Source: a virus
UHGV virus genome: UHGV-0109393
Strand: one strand, 5' to 3'
DNA: 63,844 nucleotides
In this document: piece after piece, positions 1 to 40,870 of the stretch
Layout of the letters: each line of letters begins with the position of its first letter
Position numbering within the stretch: the stretch's first letter is position 1
Made by a program: the position numbers and the translations under genes
The notes under the pieces: generated by a model
Told to the model about the DNA's origin: nothing
Database searches by the model: none
The model's input: only the letters and a program-made list of their open reading frames with translations

Positions 1-66
1 CCGCGACGAAATTGAAAACAGCCATAAACATTAATGGCGTCAGGTTCGATGGTTCGGCTGACATTA
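1..66. repeat. Left copy of the invertible-segment inverted repeat (partial; continues left of the window)
   Basis: Positions 1..52 are the exact reverse complement of 4591..4642; the match degrades over the next ~15 bp. Confidence 0.85.
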
Positions 67-2111
67 CGTTGACTCCTAAAGATCTGGACGTTTACAGCAA
101 AAGCGAAATAGACAATAAAAAAGGGATGAGAAAATACACTTTTTCAGCGCCTGCAAATGCAGTAAGCGGTAAGTGGTATCCTATAGTATTTCGCCGATCT
201 AGAGGCGGTACCGATGAATTAGCCTCACGAGTTGTGATAACTACTTATTCCTCAGCTGGCGGATACGCCATGAATAATTGTGAATTTAATGGTTTTGTTA
301 TGCCTGGCGGTTGGTCTGATCGCGGTTCATATGCGGCTGGTTTTTTCTCAATATATTCTACTGCTGAGCGAGCTATACACTCGATTATTTCAAGTGTGAA
401 AGATGACGATTTGTGTAGTGTGTTTTACGTTGAAGCCAGAGCATTTCCTATCAAGATATTTGCTGAGGAGGGCTTGAACGTAATTGTTCCAACTACTGAC
501 TATACCGTTGGTCAAGCCACCTATAAGTGGGGGGCCACAGATCCAGTAGCAGAAAGTACAAATACTCAAACCATTCTGGATTTTAAAAATGGACGTGGTT
601 ATTACTGCTCACATCAGTTTGTTTCAAGCCTTTCAGGAAATGCAGCAACAGCAACGAAATTAGCAAGTTCAATAAACATAGGTGGTGTATCCTTTGATGG
701 TTCAGCCGATATAGATTTGCCTGGTGTTAATGCGACTGGTAATCAGAACACCACGGGGAATGCGGCGTCTGCCACGAAATTACAAACGGCAAGAACCATT
801 GGTGGCGTTTCATTTGATGGCTCCGCCAATATCAACCTGCCGGGCGTGAATATTGCTGGTAGCCAGAACACGACTGGTAATGCTGCAACCGCAACGAAAC
901 TTCAGACGGCCCGCACAATAGGCGGCGTGTCATTCGATGGTAGTGCCAATATCGACCTGCCAGGTGTGAATAAAACAGGTAATCAGAGCACAACCGGTAA
1001 TGCTGCAACTGCAACAAAACTGCAAACAGCACGCACAATAGGCGGCGTGTCATTCGATGGCTCCGCCAATATCAACCTGCCGGGTGTAAACATTGCTGGT
1101 AACCAGAACACAACCGGTAATGCAGCGACAGCGACCAAGTTACAAACCGCTAGAACTATAAATGGGGTGTCGTTTGACGGTTCTAAAAACATTGAGCTAA
1201 CTCCAAGGTCTATAGGCACGATCAACTCAGCAACAATGTCTTTTAGTGGTGGTGCCGGATGGTTCAAGCTGGCAACTGTAACCATGCCACAGGCCAGTTC
1301 CGTGGTTTACATAAGCCTGATTGGTGGTGCAGGGTATAACGTTGGCTCCCCGCAGCAAGCAGGCATCTCTGAGCTGGTTCTGCGTGCCGGAAATGGAAAT
1401 CCAAAGGGTATTACTGGTGCATTATGGCGACGGACCTCGGTTGGATTTACTAATTTTGCATGGGTGAATACATCCGGTGATACCTATGACATTTATGTAG
1501 AAATAGGTAATTACGCCACAGGTGTTAATATCCAGTGGGATTATACAAAGGATGCAACTGTACAAATTCATACATCACCAACTTATACAGCGAATAAACC
1601 AACAGGCCTGACAGATGGAACTGTATATGTAATTTACAGTTCGCACATAAAACCGACTGCTGCTGATGTTGGGGCGTTGTCATTATCTGGTGGTCAATTG
1701 AATGGTGCACTGGGTATCGGAACATCCAGTGCTCTTGGCGGTAACTCGATTGTTTTGGGTGATAATGACACGGGCTTTAAACAAAATGGCGACGGTAATC
1801 TGGACGTTTATGCTAATAACGTCCATGTTATGCGCTTTGTCTCCGGCAGCATTCAAAGTAATAAAACCATAAATATTACAGGGCGTGTTAACCCCTCGGA
1901 TTACGGTAACTTTGATTCCCGTTATGTGAAAGATGTTCGCCTGGGTACGCGTGTTGTTCAATTGATGGCGCGTGGTGGTCGTTATGAAAAAGCCGGACAC
2001 GCAATTACCGGATTAAGAATCATTGGTGAAGTAGATGGCGATGATGAAGCCATCTTCAGACCAATACAAAAATACATCAATGGCACATGGTATAACGTCG
2101 CACAGGTGTAA
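1..2111 (+). CDS. S: Tail fibre protein S, 5'-truncated by window edge (reading frame continues upstream of position 3); C-terminal variable part in expressed orientation
   Basis: Long Gly/Asn/Thr-rich ORF with about five 40-aa tandem repeats (GNAATATKLQTARTIGGVSFDGSANI-LPGVN); followed by a tail-fibre assembly gene; sits in a Cin-invertible segment. ORF track start at 12 is TTG and not the true start. Confidence 0.8.
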   Translation, partial: ATKLKTAININGVRFDGSADITLTPKDLDVYSKSEIDNKKGMRKYTFSAPANAVSGKWYPIVFRRSRGGTDELASRVVITTYSSAGGYAMNNCEFNGFVMPGGWSDRGSYAAGFFSIYSTAERAIHSIISSVKDDDLCSVFYVEARAFPIKIFAEEGLNVIVPTTDYTVGQATYKWGATDPVAESTNTQTILDFKNGRGYYCSHQFVSSLSGNAATATKLASSINIGGVSFDGSADIDLPGVNATGNQNTTGNAASATKLQTARTIGGVSFDGSANINLPGVNIAGSQNTTGNAATATKLQTARTIGGVSFDGSANIDLPGVNKTGNQSTTGNAATATKLQTARTIGGVSFDGSANINLPGVNIAGNQNTTGNAATATKLQTARTINGVSFDGSKNIELTPRSIGTINSATMSFSGGAGWFKLATVTMPQASSVVYISLIGGAGYNVGSPQQAGISELVLRAGNGNPKGITGALWRRTSVGFTNFAWVNTSGDTYDIYVEIGNYATGVNIQWDYTKDATVQIHTSPTYTANKPTGLTDGTVYVIYSSHIKPTAADVGALSLSGGQLNGALGIGTSSALGGNSIVLGDNDTGFKQNGDGNLDVYANNVHVMRFVSGSIQSNKTINITGRVNPSDYGNFDSRYVKDVRLGTRVVQLMARGGRYEKAGHAITGLRIIGEVDGDDEAIFRPIQKYINGTWYNVAQV
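640..1200 (+). repeat. About 4.5 tandem copies of a ~120-bp (40-codon) unit inside the S gene
   Basis: Direct reading: near-identical units ...accggtaatgctgcaac-gcaacgaaactgcaaacggcacgcacaataggcggcgtgtcattcgatgg... repeated in frame. Confidence 0.8.
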
Positions 2112-2114
2112 ATT

Positions 2115-2642
2115 ATGCAGCATTTAAAAAATATTAAGTCAGGAAATCCTAAAACGAAAGAACAATATCAGCTAACAAAGAATTTTGATGTTATCTGGTT
2201 ATGGTCCGAAAACGGTAAAAACTGGTATGAGGAAGTAAATAACTTTCAGGACGACACCATAAAGATTGTATACGACGAAAATAATATTATTGTTGCCATC
2301 ACCAAAGATGCCTCAACGCTTAACCCTGAAGGTTTTAGCGTCGTTGAGGTTCCCGATATTACAGCCAACCGCCGCGCTGATGATTCAGGAAAGTGGATGT
2401 TTAAGGATGGAGCTGTAGTTAAACGGATTTATACGGCAGACGAGCAGCAACAACAGGCCGAATCACAAAAGGCCGCGTTACTTTCCGAAGCGGAAAGCGT
2501 TATTCAGCCACTGGAGCGCGCTGTCAGGCTGAATATGGCGACGGATGAAGAGCGTAGCCGACTGGAAGCATGGGAACGCTACAGTGTACTGGTCAGCCGT
2601 GTGGATACGGCAAATCCTGAATGGCCACAAAAGCCTGAATAA
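2115..2642 (+). CDS. U: Tail fibre assembly protein (U/Tfa)
   Basis: 175 aa directly after S; N-terminus [14 protein letters not shown]... is paralogous to the convergent ORF at 2671..3204, the arrangement expected for U/U' in Mu and P1 invertible segments. Confidence 0.8.
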
Positions 2643-2647
2643 AAATT

Positions 2648-2667
2648 AAGGCCCGCTATCGGGCCTT
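2648..2667. terminator. Bidirectional hairpin terminator between convergent U and U'
   Basis: aaGGCCCgctatcGGGCCtt, flanked by A and T runs. Confidence 0.6.
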
Positions 2668-2670
2668 GTC

Positions 2671-3204
2671 TCATTCAGGTTGTTCGGGAAATGTTACTGG
2701 CAGGCTGGAGGTGTCTGTAGATTCGACTTTCTGCGCATAGAGCATCCACTCAGTTAATTTTTGTTTATTCTCGTCTGAAATGATACCCAGCCGTAGCTGT
2801 GAGTCCCATAGCTGGGTTTTATCCCTGACAAGTTGCAACAGGCTTTGTTTTTCATTCTCTGCCTGCTGCCTCTGTTCTTCCTCGGTATAAGTTCGCTTTA
2901 TCACTACGCCATCTTTGAACATCCATTTACCCGAAATGTCAGCACGGCGATTTGCAGTAATGTCAGCAACCTCAACAACGCTTAAACCTTCTGGATTTAT
3001 TGTAGATACGTCTTTATCTATAGCCACAATAATTCCATCTGATGTGTAAGCAATTTTTATAGTGTCATCCTGAAAGTTCTTTTGTTCCTCATACCAGTTT
3101 TTATCGTCCTCAGAATACAACCAGACAACACCGAATTGTCGCGTCAATTCATATTGTTCAACAGTTTTTGGATTTCCGGATCTGATGTTTTTCAAATGCT
3201 GCAT
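2671..3204 (-). CDS. Alternative tail fibre assembly protein U'
   Basis: 177 aa; N-terminus [21 protein letters not shown]... is a paralogue of U; opposite strand inside the invertible segment. Confidence 0.75.
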
Positions 3205-3206
3205 AA

Positions 3207-4721
3207 TTAAATACTTCCCGCGTTATACCAAGTGCCATTGATACAATACTGCACAGGTCTTGCCTGAGTTGTATCAATAAGTTCGTCCTTATTTGAGTTG
3301 ATTGAGGCAGTAACAACATAACCAGATTTATCGTTCCAACCAGGACCATTCCATGTTTGCACTGACGATTTTGTACCTAATCGAATACCTGTAATAAATC
3401 GTGAATTACATTCTGCTTTGGTATATGCACCAACATCTCCCGCTGATGGCTTACGTGTTGTAGTGTAAAATTCCGACCAGTCGGCTTCAAAGCCATAACC
3501 GTCACGCGCAGAACGATAATAAATACCGCCGTTCTTATAATTCACGCGGAACTGAACAGCCGGACAACTACCAGCTCCCATATAAAAATGAAGAATTAAC
3601 GTAGATGCTCCACCAATATTTGCGTTATAAACCCCGCTAATTGAGTTCCATCCAACAGCTTTGTCATTTCCAACTGTGCTTCCTGTCTGCCCTAAAGCAA
3701 ATGCAGGTTGCTGGTTTTTTGTGCTGTAGTCGCGCCGCCAGCCTGGGGCGTAATCTGCGCCATGGTTTATATAAGTAAATTGCGCATTAGTGGTGCCACC
3801 ACCGGTGGAAGTGCTCGGGGTGGTTACACGGATGGTCATGGCACCTTTATTACCCATAACCTCAATAACGCAACCTGCAAGATGAATAGTTCCACAGCCA
3901 GTATCGGTAATAATTTTATTATTGCCGTATGACCATGAACATTTGCACATCCAGTATGGGTGATTGAATGCCCCTTGAGAATCCAGCCATTCAATCAATT
4001 GTGCCGTTGTCCAGTTCCCTGCCCCTGTACTAATAGCACTGTGAAAAGCGCGACATGCACCAATATTTTTTGTGAAGGTATCTTTTCCTGGAATATCTGC
4101 GCCGTTCTGGTTTTTCTGCAATGATCCAGCGGCTAGTTCTACGGTTTGCTCAAGATTTAAATTTTCAGCCGTTAGCTCAATATTTTTAGAACCATCAAAC
4201 GAAACACCGTTAATAGTGCGCGCCGTCTGCAATCTGGTCGCCGTAGCAGCATTGCCGGAGGTATCCTGATCCCCTTTGGCATTGACGCCGGGAATTGAAT
4301 CTTTTGACGTATAGACCTGCGCCCATTCAGACCAGTTGGCAGAATCAGTATCCCGCCGCGAACGGATATGTACGGGCGCATGGGCACCGCTCGTGCCACT
4401 CCAGCCAATGAATAACTCACCTTCGCCAGCAGCGGTGGCACCTTTGAGGTGAAGCACATTGCCATAGGGGGAAGGGTAGCCATTGTTGTATGCCTCATAC
4501 AGCTGAATCCCGGACGTTCCCTGTGCATTCGCCCCCAGGGCCGTTACGCGACCGCGCGATACCAGAGTATTGATATTAATGTCACCAGAACCATCGAACC
4601 TGACGCCATTAATGTTTATGGCTGTTTTCAATTTCGTCGCGGTGTCGGCGTTCCCCGCCAGCGCCCCGGTGATCCCGCCATTGAAAGTCTGGCGCGCACT
4701 CCATGTGTTAGCCGTACTCAA
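3207..4721 (-). CDS. Alternative tail fibre variable cassette (S'v), not joined to the constant part in this orientation
   Basis: 504-aa ORF whose N-terminal region ([18 protein letters not shown]) is encoded by the right inverted repeat and matches the S region at the window start; carries the same [29 protein letters not shown] motif as S. Confidence 0.7.
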
Positions 4722-4751
4722 CAGGGGGATCTTTTCACCGCTGGTACCGAG
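4577..4751. repeat. Right copy of the invertible-segment inverted repeat
   Basis: 4591..4642 is the exact reverse complement of 1..52; the repeat probably extends to the cix-like site at ~4752. Confidence 0.8.
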
Positions 4752-4779
4752 TTCTCTTAAACCAAGGTTTAGGATTGAA
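4752..4779. promoter_or_regulatory. cix/gix/hix-like recombination site for the Cin-type invertase
   Basis: TTCTCTTAAACCAAGGTTTAGGATTGAA, with the AAACCAAGGTTT core typical of Hin/Gin/Cin crossover sites as recalled; lies between S'v and cin. Confidence 0.55.
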
Positions 4780-5329
4780 ATGATGACGCCGGAAACTTCT
4801 TATAAAGCGTGGAAACAGCCACATCATAGATGATTGCAACCTGCTTACGGGGGATGCCCTTCTCGAGCAATCGCCGCATTTGCTGCCATGTTTCTTCTTG
4901 GTATTTAGGCCGACGCCCACCTATACGACCTTCTGCGCGAGCTGCATCAAGTCCAGCGCGTGTACGTTCAACGATAAGCTCACGTTCCATTTCTGCCAGC
5001 GCCCCCATTACGTGAAAGAAAAAGCGCCCCATTGGTGTACTGGTGTCGATGGAGTCAGTGAGACTCCGGAAGTTAATGCCTCTGTCACGCAGCTCTTCCA
5101 CCAGCACAACTAAGTGACGCATGCTGCGCCCAAGACGATCTAACTTCCATACGACTAGGGTGTCACCTCTGGAAAGCATACGGAGAACCTTTTTTAACCC
5201 TGGGCGTTCAGCCTTTTTGCCGCTCGCCTTATCCTCAAAAATTAGCTCACATCCTGCGCTTTCAAGGGCGTTTCGTTGTAAAGCGGTGTTTTGGTCATTA
5301 GTTGATACGCGAATGTATCCAATAAGCAT
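4769..5329 (-). CDS. cin: Serine DNA invertase (Cin/Gin/Pin/Hin family)
   Basis: 186 aa; MLIGYIRVSTNDQ... catalytic serine motif, GRxGGRRP hinge, C-terminal HTH; next to the invertible tail-fibre segment. Confidence 0.92.
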   Translation of the reverse strand: MLIGYIRVSTNDQNTALQRNALESAGCELIFEDKASGKKAERPGLKKVLRMLSRGDTLVVWKLDRLGRSMRHLVVLVEELRDRGINFRSLTDSIDTSTPMGRFFFHVMGALAEMERELIVERTRAGLDAARAEGRIGGRRPKYQEETWQQMRRLLEKGIPRKQVAIIYDVAVSTLYKKFPASSFQS

Positions 5330-5434
5330 ATGTCCCCCCTTGTATGTTAAGGGGGGAGATTTTAGAAGATGTCCTGTAAGGAAATAACAAACTGACTAAG
5401 TTAGTGGCGCATTAGATGTTATTTCTGGAGGGGT

Positions 5435-5761
5435 ATGTTTGCAGATTATGAAAATCTGGCTGTAGTAGTCATAACATCCCTACTAAGTGGAACCGGCGTA
5501 TTCCTTCTCGGAGTTAGAGACGGGCGCATTTCTGCGTCCCTGCTCAATCTTGCGAGTGAATTGTTTACTGCGGTAACAGCCGGGCTTGCGGGGTATGGGG
5601 TGGCGGTTAGCCAAGAATGGCCTGAAGGTATCATTTTCTGCGTTGTTCTGATTGCCAGTAACAACGGTAGTGAAATTTTACAGGGCTTGAAGTCCAGAGC
5701 TAGTAACGTCTTGAATCTCTTAAGCGTAATAGCGAATGGGGGAAAAGGTGGAGAGAAATAA
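5435..5761 (+). CDS. Putative holin (LydA-like) small membrane protein
   Basis: 108 aa with 2-3 hydrophobic segments; ATG preceded by GGAGGGG; first gene of the operon next to cin, as lydA is in P1 (synteny recalled). Confidence 0.4.
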   Translation: MFADYENLAVVVITSLLSGTGVFLLGVRDGRISASLLNLASELFTAVTAGLAGYGVAVSQEWPEGIIFCVVLIASNNGSEILQGLKSRASNVLNLLSVIANGGKGGEK

Positions 5762-6207
5762 TGGGTAACTTTGGAAATTATTTCATTTTTATCATGGCAT
5801 TTGTTGCCATCATTGACCGTTTCATTTTTCGTCGCAAGAGTGTTGAGATTTTGAGTATTGGTGACGCTGTAGTGAAAGAATCCGCTATAGCATTTCCTGT
5901 TTCGCTACGTGTTAAACGAAGCTGGGTCAGCAATGCTCAAATCGAATATTGGTTGCAAGACCTGAAAAATCCATCTGTGGTTATTTCAGGGAAAACGCGA
6001 CCAGTTGACGCCTCAAAACGCGGTGAGAGAGAAGAGTATTTGCTCATCGATACGAAATATCTTGAGCCAACGAAGTGGGATCTGAAAGTCACATTGACTA
6101 ACGGTAACTGTCGACTGAATCCGCTTTATCGCATTTTCCCTATCAATGACTGCATAGAGCGCCAGTTTACGATCGAAAAGCGTGAAGGAGACTGGGATGT
6201 CAAATAA
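5761..6207 (+). CDS. Hypothetical protein, possible antiholin (LydB-like)
   Basis: 148 aa, N-terminal hydrophobic segment; position and size only. Confidence 0.3.
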   Translation: MGNFGNYFIFIMAFVAIIDRFIFRRKSVEILSIGDAVVKESAIAFPVSLRVKRSWVSNAQIEYWLQDLKNPSVVISGKTRPVDASKRGEREEYLLIDTKYLEPTKWDLKVTLTNGNCRLNPLYRIFPINDCIERQFTIEKREGDWDVK

Positions 6208-6817
6208 GAATAATTATGTTCTTCTTAATTATGATGAGTTAAACGAAAAGGGGCTGGCAAAACTCGTCAAAGAAATCAGCAAAGGTGGTTACAAGATAGC
6301 GAGGGTGATCCCTGCAAGTAATGGCAGGAAGAAAGATGGGATCATGACGCGCACGTTTACCCTTATTGGTATTGATGAACAGACAATGGAAGTTCAGGTT
6401 AATGATACCGGTGATATATCTGGGATCAAACTGAATGGTAAAACAGTACCGTTCAAGCCAGTAAAAACAATGTCGGCTTTGGGGCAATCTCTTGCGGCTT
6501 TATTTAATCGCGGAGCAACTTCTTTCCAGAAGTCATTAGCTCGAAAACTTGCTCGTGCAGCAAAAAATATTGATGACGGAAATAAGAAGCGGCAGGGAGT
6601 TAAATCTAACGCTCAGAAATTAGCTGAAGCGAAAGAATCACGTGATGCACTCCGTGAAGATATCGCTAATGCTAACGACAAACTGTCTAAACTCCAGAGC
6701 AAGTCAGACAAAGTAATGCAAGATACGGGTAACGTTAAAGCTGCCTTGTCTCAGGAAGTAGCTAAGACACGTGCTCTTAAAGAAGAAATCGCGCGCCTGG
6801 AGGATGAGCATGATTAA
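6182..6817 (+). CDS. Coiled-coil protein (position matches hdf of the P1 darA operon)
   Basis: 211 aa, Lys/Ala-rich coiled-coil C-terminus; true start may be the ATG at 6197; synteny only. Confidence 0.35.
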   Translation: MKETGMSNKNNYVLLNYDELNEKGLAKLVKEISKGGYKIARVIPASNGRKKDGIMTRTFTLIGIDEQTMEVQVNDTGDISGIKLNGKTVPFKPVKTMSALGQSLAALFNRGATSFQKSLARKLARAAKNIDDGNKKRQGVKSNAQKLAEAKESRDALREDIANANDKLSKLQSKSDKVMQDTGNVKAALSQEVAKTRALKEEIARLEDEHD

Positions 6818-8747
6818 CAATCCTTTACGAATTAATATTCAGTCTACTTTTGCTGATACGATCCCCGGCTATGTGCCAAGTCGCTGGTCTTCAGAAGAAT
6901 TAAGCGAAGATGACCTGATTTTTGAGGCGGCGACCTTAGAAGATATTGAGCTTGCCTATATGGGCAATGAAATTCTGGTTGTGTCTGACGAAGCTATGTT
7001 TGAGTCCATAACTACAACCAGAATTCGGTTAGCTCAAACAATGCGAGCTTTCGTCCGTGCGCTGAATCGTGGCCTGAATGGTACGAATATTATGGCAGGG
7101 ACTGATGAAGCTGGGACCGATGAAAATGGACGTAATTGTATTGGTGGTGCGATTATCGGTCGTGTACGTCGGGTAGCTAATATCCCTGTTTTGACCGCGC
7201 AGATACCGCTTACTGACGGGCAGAGTACAAGCATAATTTTCCACTCTCCAACAGCTGACGGGGCAAAAATAAAGAGTAACGACGAGCTTGTTGCATTTCA
7301 GTTTTTACTTAATAAGCGTAACGTAACTCACGTTGTCGCCCCGATTGGTGGGAGAGATGTTTCTTTAAGCCAGGTATGCCAGGCGCTATCTAATTTGATT
7401 GAGCGTAACAGCGAAAAATTTAAGAAAGCAAAAGAGCGCCAGGACAAAATGAAGGCAGATATTGAGAGTTATCTCAATGAAGCAGATAAACTGGCAGAAG
7501 AACGGTCAATAATGATTGATCAGGTGGAAGTTGCGCAACGTGGGCTGACTGAAAAGCGTGCTGCTCTTACGGAGATGCAAAAAAAACTTGATGCCCAGAA
7601 AGCCATCAACGAGGAATTACAAGCAAAACGCGATAAATTGTTGTCTGCTAAAGGTGAAAAAACGAAAGAACGAGCGTTTAGCGACCAGCTGCGACATGTA
7701 AAACATAATCTTGCCATTGACGGAAAAACAGTGCTGGATAATGGCGCTGAAGTTAATTATGTCACGTCCGGCAGTGACAATTTCGTTACGATAGTAGCAC
7801 CTGAAGGTAAATTCAGTATTGATGCCAGTGCTGTCAAAGGAGGCAGTTTGGCAGATGCTGCAACCAAATTACTTAAAGCCTACCGAGAGCATAACGCAGA
7901 TAAATATAAAGTTGATGTGTTACCAGGCCAGCAGGAAGACCCCGAACCACCACAGACAGACCCCGAGACGAACCCAGTATCACAACCAGAGAGCCAGGAT
8001 GTAGGTAAATACCACTATGCACTTCAATCTCGCCCGGCTGGTGTTGGTGCTGTGCCGGATGGAAATAAAGCCGTGCTTGATCGTCCTGACCAGGCTGATC
8101 AGTATTACGAATATGCTCGTCACGGTATCATTACGTATGACCGTAAACTGACAGATGAAGAAGTCAGCCAGTACGAGTTGCTCTATCTTCCTGATGAAGA
8201 TGAGCTGAAAGATTTTGCAGGCCAATTGGTTGTGTCCAGCATGTCGAAACATATTGATGGCTATGTAGACCTGTTTGGCAGTGACCTGAAAACATTCAAG
8301 GCGCAAGTGAAAATTCTTTTCCGCAAAGCGTTTCCAAACGTGGCGTATCCACTTGGTGATGGGGAGAACCTTTTCATTATGGACGTATATAACGCCCTTC
8401 AAAATCATTCAAACGAAGTAACGCCAGAGCCTGAATTAGCACCTGTAGTTGAGCCAGAATCACACCCACAAACAGCACCAGAGCAACAGCCAACGCCGGA
8501 AGACGCTGAAGAAGCGGCAACTGAAGCTGATCAGGAAGCAGATAAAGCGTTGGAGTACCTTAAATCCGTCCCGGTGCAGTTTACATCTCGCGATCTGACG
8601 GTAATCAGTGCCGAACTTGACCATGTGCAGGAAGCTGCAAACGCTCTTATCAGTGCTGGTCGATACGACGAGAACGAATCAACGGTTGGCGCAGCAGTTG
8701 ACTACCTGATCAACATTCTGGCTGAAATTCAGCAGGGAGGTGCTTAA
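6804..8747 (+). CDS. Large acidic virion-associated protein, DarA-like by position
   Basis: About 647 aa from the ATG at 6804, which lies just before the upstream stop (translational coupling); DarA call rests on synteny and size. Confidence 0.35.
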   Translation: MSMINNPLRINIQSTFADTIPGYVPSRWSSEELSEDDLIFEAATLEDIELAYMGNEILVVSDEAMFESITTTRIRLAQTMRAFVRALNRGLNGTNIMAGTDEAGTDENGRNCIGGAIIGRVRRVANIPVLTAQIPLTDGQSTSIIFHSPTADGAKIKSNDELVAFQFLLNKRNVTHVVAPIGGRDVSLSQVCQALSNLIERNSEKFKKAKERQDKMKADIESYLNEADKLAEERSIMIDQVEVAQRGLTEKRAALTEMQKKLDAQKAINEELQAKRDKLLSAKGEKTKERAFSDQLRHVKHNLAIDGKTVLDNGAEVNYVTSGSDNFVTIVAPEGKFSIDASAVKGGSLADAATKLLKAYREHNADKYKVDVLPGQQEDPEPPQTDPETNPVSQPESQDVGKYHYALQSRPAGVGAVPDGNKAVLDRPDQADQYYEYARHGIITYDRKLTDEEVSQYELLYLPDEDELKDFAGQLVVSSMSKHIDGYVDLFGSDLKTFKAQVKILFRKAFPNVAYPLGDGENLFIMDVYNALQNHSNEVTPEPELAPVVEPESHPQTAPEQQPTPEDAEEAATEADQEADKALEYLKSVPVQFTSRDLTVISAELDHVQEAANALISAGRYDENESTVGAAVDYLINILAEIQQGGA

Positions 8748-9121
8748 TGACTATCTCTGTTTTAGACCGTCTGAAATTGGGTAAAGAGCTATCAGATTTA
8801 ATGCAGGCGCAGAAAACCGCGCCAGTATTACAACGCGTCGCCATTGGTAAGCAGATTGTTGATCTGATGCTTAAACTGGGGTTGGGTACTGCCGCTCAAC
8901 CGATGTCGGAACCGCAACCACAACCACAGTCTGATCCTGTTGCAGATGAAGTTCCTAAGATAGTGACTGACTTCCTGGGCGGCGTGTTCACAAAGTCCAC
9001 ACAAATGGAATTTATTGATGCGCTGCGTGGGATCTCAAACTATGTTGGCGAGTTCCTTACGTTGGAGCAGGCTAAAGAACAGACCATAAGCTGGGTGAAA
9101 GCCAACGGTTATGCCGGGTAA
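8747..9121 (+). CDS. Hypothetical protein (DdrA-like by position)
   Basis: 124 aa, start overlaps the upstream stop. Confidence 0.3.
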   Translation: MTISVLDRLKLGKELSDLMQAQKTAPVLQRVAIGKQIVDLMLKLGLGTAAQPMSEPQPQPQSDPVADEVPKIVTDFLGGVFTKSTQMEFIDALRGISNYVGEFLTLEQAKEQTISWVKANGYAG

Positions 9122-9203
9122 TCAAAAGGGGGCGAAATGCCCCTTTCACTTCTCTGTTCTCACATAAATCACACTCTTTTTACACTCACAGCTTTCTCTA
9201 TAG

Positions 9204-10601
9204 TTGGAGTGTATTTTGAACAAATCAGTTACTTCTGCGCTTTCCGAGGCCGCAGATATTAACAGCGTCATTGCTCTGGTTTCTTCATTAGAGAGGAAAG
9301 AAACACGCCTGGGGCGAAGTAGCTACGTTGTCACCAGCAAAGGTGCAGAGGTAAAGACGGCTTTTAAGGTCGTTGATGCCAGCAGTCTGATCATTTCGAA
9401 CAACCTTGACGGTATGATTAACCCGGCCTTCCCGGAAGAACTCCAACCACGAGATCGTACCCGGCTATCCAGCAAACTCCAGGTTAACCGTATTGCCTCC
9501 AATTTACGCCCGGCACAATTAACGGATTCCGGTATGAGCAGCCACGGAGCGCCGATAGTTGGTCCGGACAACGTTGTTGAATCCGGCAACGGAAGGAGTA
9601 TGGGTATCTGGCGTGCCTATGAGCAAGGACAGGCGGATGAGTATCGCCAGTACCTGATCGACCATGCGAAAGAGTTTGGTCTGAATCCTGACGAAATTTC
9701 GCAAATGTCTATGCCCGTACTAGTGCGAGAAAGACTCACAGATGTAGACCGCGCTCAATTTGCCCGCGATTCAAACATTAGCGATCTGCAAGAGATGGCA
9801 GCAAGTGAAAAAGCGTATGCGGATGCGCAATTTCTCACTGAGAGCGTCATGGCGCTATTTAATCCTTCAGATGATGGAAATCTGCTGGCGCGGTCCAATG
9901 ATGCGTTTATTCGTGCGTTTTTGCGCGAAATTGGCGATACAGCGACGGCAGGCTTGCTTACTGCCGATGGGCGTCCCACGAAACAGCTTATCGATCGCAT
10001 CCAGAATGCAATTTTTGCCAAAGCGTACAAGGATGAAAGGCTTGTTCGGCTAGTGTCGGAAGAGCCAGATCCGGAAATGCGTAATATCCTGACCGCATTA
10101 AATACGGCAGCCAGCGATTTTGCGCAAATGCAGTCGCTGTCTGGCGACGCTCACCATGACGCAGTAACAGGCTTAGTGGACGGTATAGAGCAGGTTAATG
10201 GCCTGGATAAACAGGCTATTGCAGCGCTACAGGAAGCAATTAACCTTGTTCGTGAAGCAAAAGATAACGGTCAGGCAGTAGAAGAGGTGATCGCACAGCG
10301 TGGATTGTTTGGAGATAGCACTCCGGAAGCAGAAGCGCTTGCTCTGTTTATTGTTGCCAACAACCGAAGCGCTAAGCGAATGGGGGCCGCTTTCAAGAAA
10401 CTGGCGCAAAAAATTAACGATGAACTTATTCACCAACAACAAGCGTTAGGCGATATGTTCGGCGGCGGAGATGTCGATCTGCGTAGCATTTTATCTGCCG
10501 TTTCTGATGAAATTGAGGGTGAATTTGGCGAAGGGAAAGGTCTGAACTTTGCTATGTTTGAAAATTCTACAGTTCTAAATAATTGCAGTATGGAAAACTA
10601 A
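9204..10601 (+). CDS. Hypothetical protein (DdrB-like by position)
   Basis: 465 aa acidic protein in the same operon. Confidence 0.3.
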   Translation: MECILNKSVTSALSEAADINSVIALVSSLERKETRLGRSSYVVTSKGAEVKTAFKVVDASSLIISNNLDGMINPAFPEELQPRDRTRLSSKLQVNRIASNLRPAQLTDSGMSSHGAPIVGPDNVVESGNGRSMGIWRAYEQGQADEYRQYLIDHAKEFGLNPDEISQMSMPVLVRERLTDVDRAQFARDSNISDLQEMAASEKAYADAQFLTESVMALFNPSDDGNLLARSNDAFIRAFLREIGDTATAGLLTADGRPTKQLIDRIQNAIFAKAYKDERLVRLVSEEPDPEMRNILTALNTAASDFAQMQSLSGDAHHDAVTGLVDGIEQVNGLDKQAIAALQEAINLVREAKDNGQAVEEVIAQRGLFGDSTPEAEALALFIVANNRSAKRMGAAFKKLAQKINDELIHQQQALGDMFGGGDVDLRSILSAVSDEIEGEFGEGKGLNFAMFENSTVLNNCSMEN

Positions 10602-14523: not shown

Positions 14524-14839
14524 CCTGTGTGTCTACAAAACATCCCAATGATCGGAAAATGTTCTCTCGATGATTTGTATTAGAAAATTAATTTGCTGTT
14601 TCTAAATCGGAATGTATGATCTGCATCATCGACTGAAGTCATCCATTGCTGAAATTTTTAGTTGATCTTCCATGTTTTCAGGCTTATATTCATGCCGTCG
14701 TAGCAAATTCTGCGACCAGGTTTGACAGCCTGAATGTTAGTGCGGACAACCGCAGATTTCCGATATTGCGGTATTTTTGTGTCCGTAAACCGCGTTACGC
14801 CCGAATTATGGTGGGGCGTGATGGGGAGGCTTAGGCCTG

Positions 14840-14910
14840 CTGGTTTCACTAACGCCAGTCTGTCAACCCTGTCACGTCCTGCCACCTGTTTGACAGCGGG
14901 TAGCAGGTTG
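14840..14910 (+). ncRNA. Candidate c4-type antisense RNA with target sites (module 1); boundaries approximate
   Basis: GTTTGACAGC occurs at 14720 and 14889; its near-complement TCTGTCAACC sits between them at 14858; a second pair is CCTGCCACC / GGTAGCAGG; all lie just upstream of the icd-like RBS. Confidence 0.3.
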
Positions 14911-16733: not shown

Positions 16734-19700
16734 TTGGATAAACTACTTCATTCAATCAGTGAAGCCTCCAGCTTAGGCGAACTGATTGAAATTGTTAGTC
16801 GGTTGCATAAATTACGTGCTGTTGCGACCTTTGGCGTTAAGAAAGTCGATGGTGTCAGCATTCAAAAAACACGGCGGGCAGCAAACAACGCCGCAGTAGA
16901 GCTTCTTAATTCCCTTCCGCCCGGCTTCGATGGGGCGAAATTAACTGACGAACAACGTCAGATTCTTGCCGGGTATACCGGTGAAGGCGGCCTGACAGAT
17001 GGTGAGGGCAGCCAATACGAATACTACACACCACAGTTTATGGCTGAAGGTATATGGGATCTGTTTGCTGACTACGGTATTGATGGCGGGCACGTACTGG
17101 AACCATCAGCGGGCACAGGTATTTTCCAGGAGACAAAACGGCAGGGCATGATAATGACCAGCGCCGAACTATCTCCGATTTCCGGTCGAATAAACCAGCT
17201 TTTGCACCCGGAAGACGATGTGAATATCGGGGCGTTTGAGGCGCTGGCGGCGAAAGACGCAATGTATGACCACGCTGTTGGTAACGTACCGTTTGGTGAA
17301 GGGCGTTCCGGCGTTGCCGGGCTTGATCCGGCATATGCAAACGAGAAGAACGTTGGCAATTACTTTGTGCTGCGCACGATCGACAAGGTTAAGCCTGGTG
17401 GACTAATTGTATTGGTGGTGCCGAATGGCATGACCGATGGTACGAAATACAAAAAATTGCGCGATAAAGTCAGCCGTAAAGCGGAATTTTTGGGCGCACA
17501 TCGTATGCCTTCTGGTACGTTCAGCGAATCCGGTACAGATACAGTGGTGGACGTATGGGTATTGCGTAAACACCCGGAAACCTTCCTGGAGATGATCCCC
17601 GACACGGATGATGCAACGCTCAAGTCGGCAAACGTCCTTTGGGATACCTTCCTCAAAGGGAAATGGTTTACAACCGAAGGGAAGCGATTTGTTTACGGCG
17701 ATATGGAGCGTACCAGCTTCCGCAATACCCTGGTGGTGAAAAAGGACGGTCGTGTATCCAATGAGTCGATGAAAACCGCTCTATCGCGCCGCTTTGAAAG
17801 CCGCATTAATTGGGATTTGCTTGGCGTAACTACTCAGGCATGGCAGGGCGCGAAAGTGGGCGATAAACGCCTTGTAGGCGGCATCTGGCATGAGTTTGAT
17901 GGCCTGAAATGGGTCAAGGACGCGACAACCAAATCCTCCGCTCTTGATGTAAATCGATATGGTGTTACGACGTTTGGTGATCTGCAGATCGCGTTTCAGT
18001 CAACAAATGGCATTCTGGCGTTGTCATGGGACCAGATATCGGCGATCGCGTCCGACTATCCGTCGGTTATCAGTGATGAAGTAGCGGCAATGATTCGCTT
18101 TGCTGGCAAGCAGAGAGAAAAAGACAGAGAACGCGTTATGCGCGGCGCACTGATAGGGCAGTTGATCAACAAGGCGCTTGATAAGCGTAATCTGGGGGAA
18201 AATGTTGATGATGAACTTGCTGATGCCGCGCGCCTGGCGGAAGCCGAAATTGCGAAGTATGGTCCGCCGCACGCGATTAAGCTGAATGGGATTGCTGAAG
18301 CTGGCGCTAAAAACTGGATGACTTTCACTGGCAACGTGAAACAGGACGGCTCTGCTTCTGACCTCCTTGCTGGACGACTTGATGTAACGGATGGTGCTGC
18401 CGGTATTGACTTTACACGCCCGGAACAAGTTGTAACCCACCTTTTCAGTGACGTGGCACTTAATCCAATCACACTGGACGATTTTCGTGAGGCGTTTGCT
18501 GGCGAACTGCCAGGAGACGACGATGCTGCTCTGGAATACCTGGCGAAATTTGATGATATCGCTATTGATGGGTATGGCTGCCTGCTGCCGATGGACCGCG
18601 CCACCAGCGGCGATATTGCAACCAAAACAGCATTGCTGGTGGGCTGGCGTGATGCGTCAACAGGTGAGCAGAAAGCGAACTTTGAGCGTCAGTTGGCGAA
18701 AATCGAAGAGAAACGCATTTTCACGCCACTAAATAAAGTCACCGTTAATCTGAACGCCCGCTGGCTGGATCGCCGCTTGATAAAAGAGTTCCTGGCAGAG
18801 CAGGGCTATGACGAGTTTAAGTATACAGAACCCGACCTTAAGGTTGAGGACGGCATTCTGGTATCTCCGGACGATTACGAAGGTAAGGACGGGGTATTTA
18901 CTGGCTATCAACTACGAACCGTAAACGGCAAAAACGGGAATGAGTTCAAGAAGGCCAACAATAAAGACGGCTTCCTGAACCAGTTAGAAAACTACCTGAA
19001 CGGCATTAAACCGCGTGGGCAGAACGCTAACGAGTACCTGGATAAGATTGCTCAACTGGAAATTAGCTTCAACGACTGGTTACGCACTCACCCGCAGGCT
19101 GATCAGATAGCCCGCGACTATAACGACGCATTTAATGGCTTCATCCCGTTTACGCATTCTGACGCACCGCTTGGCCTGGAGGGGATTAGTGGGAAGCGCA
19201 TTCCTCTGACTTATCAGAATGAAGAAGTTCGGCGCTTGTCAGAAGATGGGCGCGGCATCATGGGATTTGGTACCGGGCTGGGTAAAACCACGACCGCGCT
19301 TGCGCTTGAGGCGTATAACTTCGAAACAGGTCGCACTAAACGCACGTGTATTGTTGTTCCGAAGGCGGTTTATCAGAACTGGTATCACGAGGCACAGAGC
19401 TTCTACAGTGCTGATGCCTTCGCCAATATGATGTTTATCGGTCTGGATGAAGTTCGTGATGACAGCGGAAATATTCTGACCGCGCCGGTGCTTGATGAAA
19501 ATGGCGAACCACGCCTCGACAGTAACGGGCAGCCTCTTACCCGAAATGTTGTGAAAGAGTCCGCCAGCGCCGTTATCGTTCAGCGCATGAACATGATCCC
19601 GTCGTCAAATTGGCGAACGGTCATCATGACAAAAGAGCAATTCGCGTCTATCCCGCTACGAGAAGAAACCATTGAGGAAAACTCACAGCAAGCGGTCTTT

Positions 19701-22700
19701 AATGCTGTGGAAATGGGGCGTCTTGACCTGGCATCTGGCAAACACCGTGACGCGCAGAAGAAGAACAAGATTAAGGACCAGGCCGCAAATACCGGTACAA
19801 CGAAGAAGCAGAATATCCCGTACTTTGAGGATATGAACTTCGATAGCGTAATTGCCGACGAAGGACATAACTACCGCAACTCCTTTAGCGCCGGGCGCGA
19901 AGCGGGGCAACTGGCATATTTGCCTAACCCGGCAGTATCCAAAATGGCCCGCGACATGGCTGTAAAAGCTGCGTACATGATGAAACGCAACAACGGGCGT
20001 GGTGTGGTTATGCTGACGGCAACACCGCTGGTGAACAGCCCGATTGATGCTTTCAACATGCTGTCTACTGTCATTCCGCAGGAAGAGTGGATGCGCATGG
20101 GTATTGTTACGCCGGATGATTTCGTTCGCGTGTTCGGTAAAACAGCCACAGTTCAGGTTCAGAAAATTTCCGGTGAGGTGGAAGAGAAGCAGGGACTGGT
20201 GGGCTTCCAGAACCTGGATGGTCTGCGTGGTATTTTCCATCGCTGGACTACTCTGAAGACTGCTGCGGACGTCGGGGCGACGGTAAAAATCCCTGATATT
20301 GTCGAGAATACCTTGCAGATCCCGATGACAGGAGAGCAAGAGGCCATTTACGAAGAACTTCGTAAGCGTGCACAGGAGTTAAGTAGTAAAGATGCGCTGA
20401 CGGTCGATGAAAACGGGCATATCACAAACGAAAAACCGGATGATTTCATCTTCTCCATCATCCGCGACATGGATAAGGTTGCTATAGATCCTGATCTGTA
20501 TGCCAGTGCGATTACATTCCAGTTCCCCGTTGAGCTTGCAGACAAGGTAAAAGCTATTGCTGATGCCCTGCCAAAAGTAGCTGGCGGTAAAGTGGCAGAT
20601 GATGCAGACGAGGCCGAAGAAGATGGCGCTGGTGGGCTGGTCAGTACGCGTACCAGCAAGGTAGTGAAGACCACCTTTAGCGAACATCCGTCGCATGTTG
20701 AAATACGTGCTGGCATTGAACTGGAAGCTGAAATACTGAAGGCCATTGCGGCTGCCGGTATTGATATGCAGCAGGTATCACACCCCATCCCGCCGAAGTA
20801 TGCCGCGCTGGTCGAAAACCTTCGTGAAGGTCTGAAGAACGGTAAACAAATCGTCTTCATTGATGAAAAAGCCCAGCACCAGAAGCTGCGCCGTATTATT
20901 GCCAGTGCACTGCAAATGCCGGAGCAGGAGATAGGCATTATCAATGCGACGACAGTTAGCCAGGCTGGCGGCGTCAAGCTGAAGAAGGTGAATAAGCCGA
21001 CTGAACCTACGCCAAATAAAAACGGTGAATACAAAGAAGGTGCATGGCAAACCTACTACAGCAAACTTGCCCAATATGAGGATTATCTCTCAGCTAAAAA
21101 TGATGCTGGCCTTGAGGGCATGGAAGGTATTGCCGCCGACTATAACGAAGGTCGCACGCGCATCATAATCTGTAACAAGAAGGCTGAAGTAGGTATTAAC
21201 TTGCACATCGGTACAACCGATATCCACCATCTGACACTACCCTGGACTCCTGCCAGTATCGACCAACGTAATGGGCGCGGCGCTCGGGTAGGCTCACCAC
21301 AAGAAAAGGTCAATGTTCACTACTATTGTGGCAAAGGCACATTTGATGACTTCCGTCTGGATACGCTGAAACGTAAGAAGGACTGGATCAATATGGTGAT
21401 GACCTCAGACATGTCAGAGATCGCCAATGGTGATGCGGATGACGCAGATGAACGCGCCATTATGCTGGCGGCAAATCCGGAAGAACGCCGTGCAATCATG
21501 AGTCGTCAGGCGCAAGAGCGTGAAGAACGTCTGAAACTGAAAGCCCTACGCGAAGCCAATAATGCTCTCGATAACTACCTGAAAGCGGCGAATGCTGCCG
21601 GGAAAGATATCGGCATGATGGAGACAGAACTGAAAAGCGCGATGGAGCAGGTAGAGCATTACCAGCGCAATCTTGACGACCTGATTAAAGCGGGGACGAA
21701 CAGGAACGGGCAGAAATATGTTCTGGAACAGTTGCGAGACTACAGAAAACGTGTGCGGGAGCTACGCTTTGCGATCACCAGAGCTAAAGACGCTGACACC
21801 GTTATGAAACGTTCTCGTGGTGATCTGGAACGTGCGATTAAAGCCGGGGTTCTGGAGCTTGATGCCGATGTATTGCAGAACCCACAGGAGTATGTACGCA
21901 CTGAGAAAAATATCTTGTTGCACAAGGGCAGCCATTATCGCGCGATCATCGATGAGAATCACAATACGACAGCAATTGTTCGTGTTACCGCCATTGATGC
22001 GGAAAGGGGCGGGTGTACGTGCCGCATATCCTGGCTGGATGTGGCTAGTCGTTACTCTCGTTCTCCGGGGACGGCATTATTTTTGCCCTTTAACCTGATA
22101 ATTGAATCGGTAACCTTTGAAGAGGGAGTTGCAGAATCGCGTGAAACAGCTGCACGTGGTGTTCAATGCCACCAGCTATCAACAACACTTACGCGCGATC
22201 AGTTCTATGATGCTATTCGCAATGGGGTAATGAATGTCACTGCCGGGAAGCCTGGTAGAGTATGGGGCGGTGGTTCAGCTATTAAATACTGGGCTTATCG
22301 CACAGATGATGGTCAGATCGCGCTGTCATCGACCTATGATGGCGTGATAGGCCAAAAAATCGGGCGAGCATCGGATATAGCACCTGAGCGATGGATATAT
22401 CCTGATGGCAACGACGAGGCGCTGAAGCGTGAAGTGGCAAAAATACAAGCCAGTGATAACCCGCTGAATGTCGTGGACGGTGAGGGATTCCTCCAGGCAT
22501 TGTATGGATATGATTACATCCAGGGAATGCAGGCATGGGGGTCACAGGCCACGATGGATGATGTTTCCCAGGAGTTTGAAAACTGGATGGCAGGGCGTGG
22601 TTTGTCCGGTCGCTCACTTAATAAAGTTACTTCTGAAGATATTCTTAGCCTGTTCCGTAAACCGTCCGGAGAAGGGCTGGAATCTTTCTGGAAGACCGTG

Positions 22701-28012: not shown

Positions 28013-28089
28013 GATGGTGTAGCTCAGTAGGATAGAGCAGCAGCCTTCTAAGCTGTCGGTCGGTGGTTCGAATCCACCCACCATCGCCA
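28013..28089 (+). tRNA. tRNA-Arg (anticodon TCT)
   Basis: Hand-folded cloverleaf: acceptor GATGGTG/CACCATC, D-arm GCTC..GAGC, anticodon loop CTTCTAA, T-loop TTCGAAT, encoded CCA; resembles E. coli argU. Confidence 0.85.
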
Positions 28090-28091
28090 AT

Positions 28092-28167
28092 GCCGGTTTA
28101 GCTCAGTTGGTAGAGCGCCTGCCTTGTAAGCAGGATGTCAGCGGTTCGAGTCCGTTAACCGGCACCA
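28092..28167 (+). tRNA. tRNA-Thr (anticodon TGT)
   Basis: Acceptor GCCGGTT/AACCGGC, anticodon loop CTTGTAA, T-loop TTCGAGT, encoded CCA. Confidence 0.85.
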
Positions 28168-28168
28168 A

Positions 28169-28255
28169 CACAACAGGTAAGGGTATTTTGCGACGTCGGA
28201 GATCGCCGTGCTTGGCAGAGGGTTCGAATCCCTACGAAGTACCCTTACCGTTGTG
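28169..28255 (+). other. tRNA-like hairpin element B (pseudo-tRNA or structured RNA)
   Basis: 16-bp stem (CACAACAGGTAAGGGTA / TACCCTTACCGTTGTG, one mismatch) enclosing a T-arm-like AGGGTTCGAATCCCT; cannot be folded into a canonical cloverleaf. Confidence 0.4.
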
Positions 28256-28632
28256 ATGAAGTGCAGCTCTTTGAAGCAACCAGAAGATAAGCATCTGGCT
28301 TCACAACATAAACCGCAGGAACGACCAATAAACGGTAGTCCGTATGGAGAATACCCCGTTGAGGAAGAGGCCTGGCCGGAACCGTAACCGGCACTACAAC
28401 GTTGAGAACACTGACGTAACGGGGTCATATCCCAATCTACGAATAAATGTTGCGTTGCAGCGTGACAACCAGTGTTCTCAACGTTGTGGTGGATTCGCAG
28501 ACTGATGCGATAGCTTTCTTGGATGTTAGGGAAATGCGGCCGCAAACCTTCCCTTTCGCGAGCGGTGATCGTCCGTAGTCCTAATTGGCTGCACCGTATG
28601 CCGGAGATTCAGTACCGGCCACCACAACGGCC

Positions 28633-28719
28633 GGAGAGTAGGGAGCATGGTGCTCAAGCGGTCTTGAAAACCGTCCCATTGCGCAAGCGATGATGGTTCG
28701 ATTCCATTACTCTCCGCCA
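28633..28719 (+). tRNA. tRNA-Ser (anticodon TGA), long variable arm
   Basis: 87 nt; acceptor GGAGAGT/ACTCTCC; anticodon arm GCGGTCTTGAAAACCGT nearly identical to E. coli tRNA-Ser(UGA) as recalled; T-loop TTCGATT, CCA. D-arm fold uncertain by hand. Confidence 0.6.
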
Positions 28720-28993
28720 GCGCAACGTTAAGAGTATTTGGCTAATTAAGCGAATGCCGGAAGCAGAACCGGATCACCAAATGCGTACAGGCGTCATCGC
28801 CGCCCAGCCAGCCAAGTGCTCTTACCATTGCGGTGAATGCGGCTAAGCGCACGCGGAACAGTTAAAACAATTTTCCTCAATAGTGAAGTCAAACATCCCG
28901 GCGTTAATTGTTAACTGGTTAACGTCACCGGGAGGCACCCGGCACCGCAATCTAACAGCAATGGCGTTTTGTCTTAAAAGGTAGCTGCAAGTG

Positions 28994-29122: not shown

Positions 29123-29131
29123 CAGTAATCT

Positions 29132-39341: not shown

Positions 39342-39395
39342 AAACATCACCGAATTAGCTGGCTGACAGCAGAAAAAATCATTGAGTGATAGTAG

Positions 39396-40838: not shown

Positions 40839-40870
40839 AAGAAACCTCCAGGAGTTAGTGGATCAGGCAC

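Follow-up and report, generated by a model that had tools for sequence, protein, structure and literature searches.

A Cin-type invertible tail-fibre segment in a D6-like, P1-family plasmid prophage from a metagenome

Introduction

The alternative tail-fibre proteins S and S' of phage P1 confer different host ranges (PMC10999674, PMC13172314). At one end of a viral metagenome contig, two opposed tail-fibre reading frames lie next to a gene for a serine recombinase, and this arrangement raises the question of whether the locus is a switch of the P1/Mu type, by what process it would invert, and whether it still does so. The window analysed here is the whole contig, 63,844 nucleotides in length. 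An earlier note, made from the letters of the window, had read the locus as a P1/Mu-type host-range switch. That reading is upheld by the recombinase Cin, the cix crossover sites, the two cassettes and the existence of both orientations, with the effect on host range itself expected by analogy. We regard it as very likely that the region is the C segment plus cin of a D6-like, P1-family plasmid prophage and acts as a Cin-mediated tail-fibre switch.

The contig end and the inverted repeat

The window corresponds to one complete SPAdes metagenome contig (ENA ERZ1309121 NODE_341), derived from a P1-family plasmid prophage of the D6-like kind. Its first position falls within the left inverted-repeat arm of the C segment, and this accounts for the contig end: the assembler broke the sequence at the repeat, and the first 55 nt of the window are the last 55-mer common to both arms, that is, a k-mer overlap at the assembler break. 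Which orientation the window records is a product of how the assembler resolved a repeat, and gives no indication of the proportions in which the two states were present in the sample.

Positions 1-52 had been described as the reverse complement of 4591-4642, with both copies encoding a shared 18-aa tail-fibre junction. Both observations hold, and the match is contained within a longer one: positions 1-66 agree with the reverse complement of 4577-4642 at 64 of 66 positions, perfectly over 1-55 and with mismatches at 56 and 58. In 64 kb, chance alone would yield about 1e-22 exact inverted matches of 52 nt. The 52-55 nt visible in the window are a shortened view of the true arm, which comparisons with plasmid pEHP91H1-2 and assembly L012 put at about 190 bp. 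The two arms of pEHP91H1-2 are identical for 192 nt, starting within cix and continuing for the whole remaining length of the repeat; in other sequences they are 97% identical, with six differing positions between the arms in L012, L018 and L010. The invertible segment measures about 4.89 kb and is bounded by two inverted 26-bp cix sites, each at the outer end of an arm (Table 1).

Table 1. Features of the C segment and cin in the window (strand given as + or -; a point marks features without strand)
Feature	Position	Strand	Remarks
Left inverted-repeat arm, inner end	1..66	+	Remainder of arm, with left cix, is 1-135 nt upstream of contig start
Sv, variable C-terminal exon of tail-fibre S, 702 codons in the window	3..2111	+	Open reading frame
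Sv internal module, about 190 aa	57..635	+	Not present in S of P1 or D6
Five tandem 120-nt (40-aa) repeats, fibre motif GNAATATKLQTARTIGGVSFDGSANINLPGVN	636..1201	+	TRF; families D1 and D2
Third inverted homology, left copy	1104..1201	+	Last Sv repeat unit
U, tail-fibre assembly chaperone for Sv	2115..2642	+	Caudo_TAP, E 2.7e-37; 97% identical to P1 U
GC-rich hairpin between convergent U and U'	2648..2667	.	8-pair stem, 6 GC pairs
U', tail-fibre assembly chaperone for Sv'	2671..3204	-	Caudo_TAP, E 6.7e-36
Sv', alternative variable exon, 518 codons	3207..4764	-	Frame open through cix
Third inverted homology, right copy	4171..4268	-	Within Sv'
Right inverted-repeat arm, complete	4577..4764	-	From crossover point to end of left-arm homology
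cixL crossover site	4752-4777	.	TTCTCTTAAACCAAGGTTTAGGATTG; half-sites TTCTCTTAAACC-AA-GGTTTAGGATTG; 26/26 identical to P1 cixL
cin, serine DNA invertase, 186 aa	4769..5329	-	Pfam Resolvase, E 3e-51; HTH_7, E 2.7e-18
Homologue of the P1 recombinational enhancer (sis, Fis-binding region)	5240..5311	.	Inside the 5' part of cin

The crossover sites, cin and a putative enhancer

The hix/gix-like site that the earlier note had seen beside the invertase proves to be a cixL site matching that of P1 at every position. It occurs once in the 63.8-kb window, where the chance expectation is 0, and its exchange point falls between 4764 and 4765. Sites were sought across the whole window with a palindromic Din-family consensus and with cixL allowing up to 3 mismatches. 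As a control, the consensus scan recovered both known sites in P1 (scores 18 and 17), Mu (17 and 17) and the Yersinia phage vB_YpM_39 (16 and 15); over positions 1-5400 of the window it gave its top score, 17, to cixL, and the next best score, 12, is background. A second cix had been predicted just upstream of the window, and near-identical sequences indeed carry one: in pEHP91H1-2 and L012 a site of the cixR type (TTATCCAATACCTTGGTTTAAGAGAA), identical to P1 cixR, lies 110-135 nt upstream of position 1. The two sites are inverted and have 12-bp half-sites around a 2-bp core. The left cix, the constant fibre part Sc, gene R and the late promoter all fall outside the window, and they are placed here by reference to sequences sharing 99.6-100% identity with it where the two overlap.

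The assignment of the recombinase to the Cin type is confirmed by 99% identity to P1 Cin: 184 of 186 residues are the same, and the only substitutions are V6I and E12D. Inactivating mutations in cin had been named as a sign that would speak against a switch; the gene is intact, the RVST active-site motif included. Its product combines an N-terminal resolvase domain with a C-terminal HTH and is encoded directly beside the segment, the cin stop codon lying within the outer half of cixL in the same overlap as in P1. The region upstream of cin is identical to that of D6. The putative enhancer agrees with that of P1 at 68 of 72 positions (annotated at 7610-7681 of L001) and is fully identical to the D6 sequence.

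The two tail-fibre cassettes

Two alternative tail-fibre C-termini, each with its own assembly gene, had been proposed from the reading frames, and Pfam, structure and sequence matches agree with this. The two C-terminal fibre exons are opposed, each is accompanied by a chaperone gene, and each is found fused in frame to Sc: the Sc-Sv fusion is a 1296-aa S reading frame in the near-identical plasmid pEHP91H1-2, and the Sc-Sv' fusion is a called 997-aa gene in L010. Sv is the exon joined to Sc when Sv' adjoins cin, as in the window orientation.

Over 518 aa, Sv' shares 93% identity with its P1 counterpart; its identity to D6 Sv' is 85%. Among solved structures it matches that of Mu S' (8ju3) at E 1e-181, and it is an S' of the P1/Mu type. 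U' is 84-85% identical to its P1 and Mu counterparts. In the window orientation Sv' lacks its own promoter and constant part and is presumably silent.

Sv is a longer mosaic and is the sole distinctive feature of this switch. Its last 305 aa are 96.7% identical to S of vB_YpM_39, a Mu-like phage isolated on Yersinia pestis, and its last 75 aa are 87-93% identical to P1/D6 S (87% for P1). Structure matches are to Mu S (5yvq) and S16 gp37 (6f45), and the only Pfam match is a sub-threshold one to gp37_trimer. No P1/D6 DNA match was found for positions 67-1097. The internal module matches phrog_6578, phrog_454 and phrog_745 in PHROGs, at mid-fibre profile positions, and has 34 homologues, every one of them an E. 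coli or E. albertii tail-fibre fragment; on these matches it is a known mid-fibre module of other E. coli prophage tail fibres. An AlphaFold model of the module predicts mostly beta strands at low confidence (pLDDT 57, pTM 0.62), and a Foldseek search of this low-confidence model against the PDB gave nothing below E 0.01 (TM about 0.2). The repeats that follow are called by TRF with period 120, 4.3 copies and 75% matches; the 40-aa motif is present in five copies in Sv of the window, in two in L005-L007 and in one in P1/D6.

On the same Sc, the Sc-Sv fibre would be 1296 aa long and the Sc-Sv' fibre about 1071 aa, a difference of about 225 aa. Tentatively, and with the odds clearly against it, the switch may alter the build of the fibre in addition to the specificity of its tip. 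If so, the 190-aa module could provide a second site for glycan binding, or the longer fibre could extend through O-antigen or capsule, and the number of 40-aa units (2 versus 5 in relatives) would set how far it reaches.

The hairpin between the convergent cassettes is probably a terminator for both; a T-run follows it on the minus strand only. Sites resembling sigma-70 promoters are fewer in positions 1-5800 than in shuffled sequence, which is uninformative in itself; their sparseness fits expression from a late promoter outside the window.

Both orientations in public assemblies

If the segment is a working switch, the inverted orientation should exist, as the earlier note had predicted, and it was found in public assemblies at >=99.9% identity. 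Eight other assemblies are at least 99.9% identical to the window across the segment. The window orientation is present in pEHP91H1-2 and L012 and the opposite one in L010, L011, L013, L014 and L017. On one strand, four of the latter (L010, L011, L013 and L014) match window positions 1-4775, and L017, whose contig ends at the corresponding point, matches 1-4642, in all cases at 99.96-100% identity; on the other strand all five match 4577-9528. The eighth assembly, L018, is a single human-gut metagenome contig that is 100% identical to window 1-4807 and carries the cin flank and cixL at both of its ends. The two ends share the same 127-mer of cin flank, and therefore the Sv-cin and Sv'-cin junctions are both k-mer-supported in one sample. 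Beyond this set, 19 of the 40 related plasmid matches listed end at query position 4775 and 21 continue into cin; a stop at 4775 is the pattern of a segment inverted relative to cin, and the two of these 19 matches that were checked are both inverted.

These data bear on the possibility that the switch is a frozen relic, the database orientations being rare old events or assembler choices with no ongoing switching. All of the orientation evidence comes from assemblies, the window itself breaks at the repeat, and short-read assemblers cannot orient a segment whose inverted repeat exceeds k unless they have read-pair information. However, opposite orientations at 99.96-100% identity over 4.8 kb argue that the flips were recent, both junctions are supported in the sample that gave L018, and cin is free of inactivating changes. 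A frozen relic is therefore considered very improbable.

The breakpoints can be located from the arms themselves. Six SNPs that distinguish the arms remain on the Sv arm whichever way the segment lies (inverted in L010, L013 and L014), while the flanks swap. The exchange must therefore fall in the stretch that runs from the outer half-site to the first of these SNPs, 84 nt further in, an interval of about 90 nt that includes cix. By such comparative evidence, the segment appears to invert with breakpoints at its crossover sites.

General recombination confined to the outermost 84 nt of the arms would produce a breakpoint pattern indistinguishable from that of Cin action, and flipping could in principle depend on RecA, through homologous recombination between the two arms (about 190 bp each), instead of on Cin at cix. 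The arms are long and similar enough for RecA, both where they are identical (pEHP91H1-2) and where they are 97% alike. They have also been homogenised in pEHP91H1-2, L011 and L017, showing that homologous exchange or gene conversion between arms does occur. Yet every mapped exchange (L010, L013 and L014) lies in the outermost 90 nt or so together with cix, and is not spread over the whole arm; moreover, the locus has an intact cin, whose product shares 99% identity with the active P1 enzyme, together with a cixL that matches that of P1 and a conserved stretch corresponding to the enhancer. RecA-dependent flipping is accordingly judged very improbable, and inversion by Cin at cix is preferred.

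A third inverted homology

The earlier note had also pointed to a third inverted homology inside the segment as a possible support for alternative rearrangements. The homology exists, the coordinates first given being approximate: the left copy matches the reverse complement of the right at 76 of 98 positions (78%), with a longest exact run of 11 nt. As a programmed event, the alternative rearrangements gain no support: the Din-family consensus scan found no cix-, gix- or hix-like site inside the segment (1-4751). The left copy shares about 80-85% identity with the two P1 repeat arms at their inner ends, and the right copy adjoins a degenerate relic of the Mu gix position. The third homology is a conserved fibre motif, the inner-end relic of the 0.62-kb inverted repeat of P1. 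Five more copies of its structural motif occur in Sv. As a substrate for RecA the pair was rejected on its low identity and short exact runs.

Multi-site shuffling, like that by Min of p15B, would make the third homology or the tandem repeats into extra crossover sites. The homology is indeed inverted and in frame, and the mosaic junctions with P1 and the Yersinia phage adjoin copies of the motif, so the motif has marked points of recombination over evolutionary time. Against shuffling, the validated consensus scan found cixL and nothing else above background, the two copies are too diverged to offer long exact runs, and the nine near-identical sequences compared are all colinear inside the segment, with no internal rearrangement seen among them (the names given are the window, pEHP91H1-2, L010-L014 and L017-L019). 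We consider multi-site shuffling extremely improbable; the window has one cix-like site, with none inside 1-4751, and does not belong with Min-like or shufflon-like systems. A two-site inversion by Cin remains the preferred reading.

Relation to known systems

Gene order and orientation logic are shared with the Cin/C-segment system of P1 (NC_005856; cixL, cixR, cin, S-U-U'-Sv'), and over window positions 1900-5331 the two are colinear, with 89.7% identity. The arms measure about 0.19 kb here against about 0.62 kb in P1, and the segment is about 4.89 kb rather than 4,256 bp. The middle of the P1 repeat in the Sv arm is replaced here by the 190-aa module and four extra 40-aa repeats, and the Sv tip is unlike that of P1 except in its last 75 aa. 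The region upstream of cin is D6-like and, unlike that of P1, has no lydC.

With D6 (MF356679) and D6-like prophages (pYU39_89) the window shares the backbone beside the switch, where a lydA-type holin, lydB, hdf and darA come directly after cin; like all D6-like genomes, it also carries glnS (PMC6799933). Neither the 190-aa module nor the repeat array is present in D6 S. Published work describes the inversion region as the part of D6-like genomes that varies most, with divergent tail-fibre content (PMC6799933). In the present case, pEHP91H1-2 is 99.6% identical to the window over 39 kb and mosaic thereafter.

Two-cassette logic and invertase family are shared with Mu and with vB_YpM_39, in which the segment is linked to hin. 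The inner 2.9 kb or so of the segment (about 1224-4150, comprising distal Sv, U, U' and distal Sv') is 87% identical to vB_YpM_39, and positions 2076-4150 are 83% identical to Mu, whereas cin has only about 69% DNA identity to Mu gin. In the Mu G-segment type, crossover sites flank a cassette of about 3 kb directly, within 34-bp repeats and with Gin alongside. In Mu and vB_YpM_39 the sites lie at the inner cassette ends; here the active sites are about 0.6-1.3 kb further out. The segment was not assigned to the G-segment type: the gix-equivalent positions (near 1201-1224 and 4150-4170) are degenerate, and the invertase is Cin, not Gin.

The p15B Min system belongs to the P1-related plasmid family and resembles the present one in its homologous invertase and in having tail-fibre exons on invertible DNA, a comparison that draws in part on annotations in the P1 record. 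Min, reportedly the subject of work by Sandmeier, Iida and Arber in 1992, has six crossover sites and many isomers. Here there are only two sites, and the compared sequences share one internal order.

Proposed mechanism

By analogy with P1 and Mu, Cin, encoded by the gene abutting the right-hand site, would exchange strands at the central AA of both sites and so flip the segment, aided by Fis bound to the enhancer inside cin. Sc, the 5' part of S, and the late promoter upstream of gene R would stay fixed outside the segment. Each orientation would then place Sc in frame with either Sv and U or Sv' and U', and the cassette facing away would not be expressed. A population of lysogens would in this manner yield phage with two fibre tips and, if P1 and Mu are a guide, two receptor specificities.

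Significance

The switch is the known, textbook Cin/C-segment inversion that widens host range, and the window adds another copy of it, on a metagenomic D6-like phage-plasmid. The analysis shows that an active inversion can be demonstrated, and its breakpoints mapped, from public assemblies alone; a contig with one and the same flank at either end is a signature of it. The locus also provides a P1-family Sv with a tip common to Mu-like phages grown on Yersinia pestis, which may interest those who engineer P1 tail fibres for delivery.

Architecture of the invertible segment

Positions 1-66 of the window match the reverse complement of 4577-4642 at 64 of 66 positions; the repeat is perfect over 1-55, with mismatches at 56 and 58. 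Exact 52-nt inverted matches are expected by chance about 1e-22 times in 64 kb, and both arms encode an identical 18-residue stretch. The inverted repeat described in an earlier note from the sequence alone is thus confirmed, and the gene layout proposed there (two alternative variable tail-fibre exons, two cognate chaperones and a serine invertase) agrees with the open reading frames and with their Caudo_TAP, Resolvase and HTH_7 domains.

Features of the invertible segment and its crossover site
Feature	Position	Strand	Description
Sv	3-2111	+	variable tail-fibre exon
U	2115-2642	+	Caudo_TAP chaperone
U'	2671-3204	-	Caudo_TAP chaperone
Sv'	3207-4764	-	frame open through crossover site
Crossover site (cixL)	4752-4777		TTCTCTTAAACC-AA-GGTTTAGGATTG; single occurrence in window
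Serine invertase (cin)	4769-5329	-	Resolvase + HTH_7 domains

The region is colinear with the C segment of phage P1, which matches 1900-5331 at 89.7%. The crossover site is identical to the annotated P1 cixL (26/26), with the crossover point between 4764 and 4765, and Cin shares 184 of 186 residues with P1 Cin, the sole differences being V6I and E12D. Positions 5240-5311, which align to the annotated P1 enhancer, are 68/72 identical to P1 and fully identical to D6. The Sv', U and U' products are 93%, 97% and 84% identical to the P1 proteins, and Sv' also matches the solved structure of Mu S' (8ju3, E 1e-181). The backbone is D6-like: cin is followed directly by holin, lydB, hdf and darA, and glnS is carried. 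D6-like plasmid prophages have been described, and the tail-fibre inversion region is their most variable part (PMC6799933).

The left end and the size of the segment

The window is a complete SPAdes metagenome contig (ENA ERZ1309121 NODE_341), and it begins with precisely the final 55 nt common to both arms, which diverge at position 56. The short perfect repeat thus shows the arm in truncated form, and the contig break is ascribed to the inverted repeat itself. Such a start would be expected of a de Bruijn graph contig that stopped at a branching vertex with k = 55, a value that we infer. The orientation seen in the window, with Sv' beside cin, reflects how the assembler resolved a repeat.

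The missing end is found in two close relatives, plasmid pEHP91H1-2 from pig E. coli 91H1 (NZ_CP149812.1; 99.6% identical over 39 kb, rising to 100% across window 67-5400) and contig L012 (99.9% identical across 9.6 kb). In both, the arm extends further upstream and reaches an exact copy of P1 cixR, TTATCCAATACCTTGGTTTAAGAGAA, located 110-135 nt upstream of window position 1, where a left cix site had been predicted. This gives a segment length of about 4,886 bp and arms of about 190 bp; in P1 the segment measures 4,256 bp and the arms about 0.62 kb. The constant part (Sc) and Sv form a single open reading frame in pEHP91H1-2. Upstream of the window, Sc contains tandem 74-aa (222-bp) repeats (pEHP91H1-2 stretch L003, 200-1846; assembly L010, 8093-11086) that resemble the P1 b1/b2 elements. 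Judged from these sequences, Sc appears to differ by one repeat unit between near-identical plasmids (S of 1296 aa in pEHP91H1-2, S' of 997 aa in L010).

Evidence for inversion

The opposite orientation is present in five assemblies, three ENA metagenome and two NCBI genome assemblies (L010, L011, L013, L014 and L017). In these, one strand matches window 1-4775 at 99.96-100% (for L017, 1-4642, as the contig ends there), while 4577-9528, comprising the arm, cin and the cin flank, aligns on the opposite strand, so that cin abuts Sv. The full Sc-Sv' fusion gene lies within the L010 locus. Six arm-specific SNPs, 84-179 nt inside cix, travel with the Sv arm in either orientation while the flanks are swapped (L012 versus L010, L013 and L014), which confines the exchange to the stretch running from the outer half-site to the first of these SNPs at 84 nt; this interval includes the cix core. 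All six inter-arm SNPs have been erased in pEHP91H1-2 (L003 1-200) and four of them in L011 and L017, arguing that gene conversion between the arms also occurs.

Both orientations can also be traced to a single sample. L018, a 4,972-nt MEGAHIT contig from a human gut metagenome (ERR1190888), holds the whole segment, 100% identical to window 1-4807, with cixL and the cin flank repeated at either end (1-231 and 4742-4972). The two ends coincide exactly with the 127-mer leading up to the first arm-specific SNP, and so both the Sv-cin and the Sv'-cin junctions were in the reads of that sample; the same cin-side flank at both contig ends is a signature of co-occurring orientations. Among more distant P1-like plasmids, the alignment stops at position 4775 in 19 of the 40 matches listed, the pattern of the inverted orientation, and the two of these that were examined are both inverted. 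Together with the P1 colinearity and the cixL and Cin identities, the finding of both orientations supports the assignment as a Cin-type host-range switch of the P1 kind.

The third inverted homology

A further inverted match inside the segment, between Sv and Sv', had been suggested to support alternative rearrangements. The homology exists (1104-1201 versus 4171-4268, 76/98 identical), and it is the inner end of the 0.62-kb repeat of P1: the P1 left arm matches window 4140-4775 at 94.8%, and both P1 arms match 1098-1201 at roughly 80-85%. Mu and Yersinia phage vB_YpM_39 have gix-type sites at the adjoining position, but the position is degenerate in the window. A consensus scan that picks up the two established sites of each of P1, Mu and vB_YpM_39 (scores 15-18) found only cixL in window 1-5400, with a next best score of 12. 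RecA usually needs 20-30 bp, and the longest exact run within the homology, 11 nt, falls below this. In addition, the near-identical sequences all stay colinear throughout the segment, with no internal rearrangement seen. A role as a third switch site is therefore rejected in favor of a structural motif and evolutionary module joint.

The Sv cassette

Sv is unlike its counterparts in P1 and D6, and no P1 or D6 DNA match was found for window 67-1097 or 1202-1899. Four parts make it up: the junction motif, a roughly 190-aa module already known mid-fibre in other E. coli prophages, five tandem copies of the 40-aa motif of the third homology, and a distal 305 aa. The 40-aa repeat occurs only twice in relatives L005-L007 and once in P1. 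The distal part shares 96.7% identity with the S protein of vB_YpM_39, which is a Mu-like phage that was isolated on Y. pestis. For the 190-aa module, structure prediction gave a low-confidence model with no fold match. With this make-up, one of the alternative fibres is about 225 aa longer than the other.

Other features of the prophage

The contig breaks off within glnS, a plasmid-borne gene for glutaminyl-tRNA synthetase (about 63375-63844, - strand, as placed by the pEHP91H1-2 alignment) and a hallmark of D6-like prophages (PMC6799933). Four tRNA genes (Arg-TCT, Thr-TGT, Ser-TGA and Met-CAT) cluster at 28013-29207 on the + strand. C4 antisense RNAs of the immunity-region type are encoded at two distinct loci, 14684-14889 with an a1b1 target element and 50798-51008 with an isrK-like RNA; descriptions of P1 usually list one immI c4. 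The 2,279-aa open reading frame at 16734-23573 (+ strand), annotated as an SNF2-related protein in a near-identical plasmid, probably encodes the DarB-type anti-restriction protein known from P1-family phages. Positions 39281-53944, where small ead/Ea22-like and hypothetical genes lie, are mosaic relative to pEHP91H1-2, with gaps and rearranged blocks at 92-97% identity, compared to 97.8-99.6% elsewhere.

Significance

The original observation is confirmed and its interpretation supported, save for the speculation on the third homology. The system is already known and identical sequence is already public; what is new is one mosaic cassette allele only.
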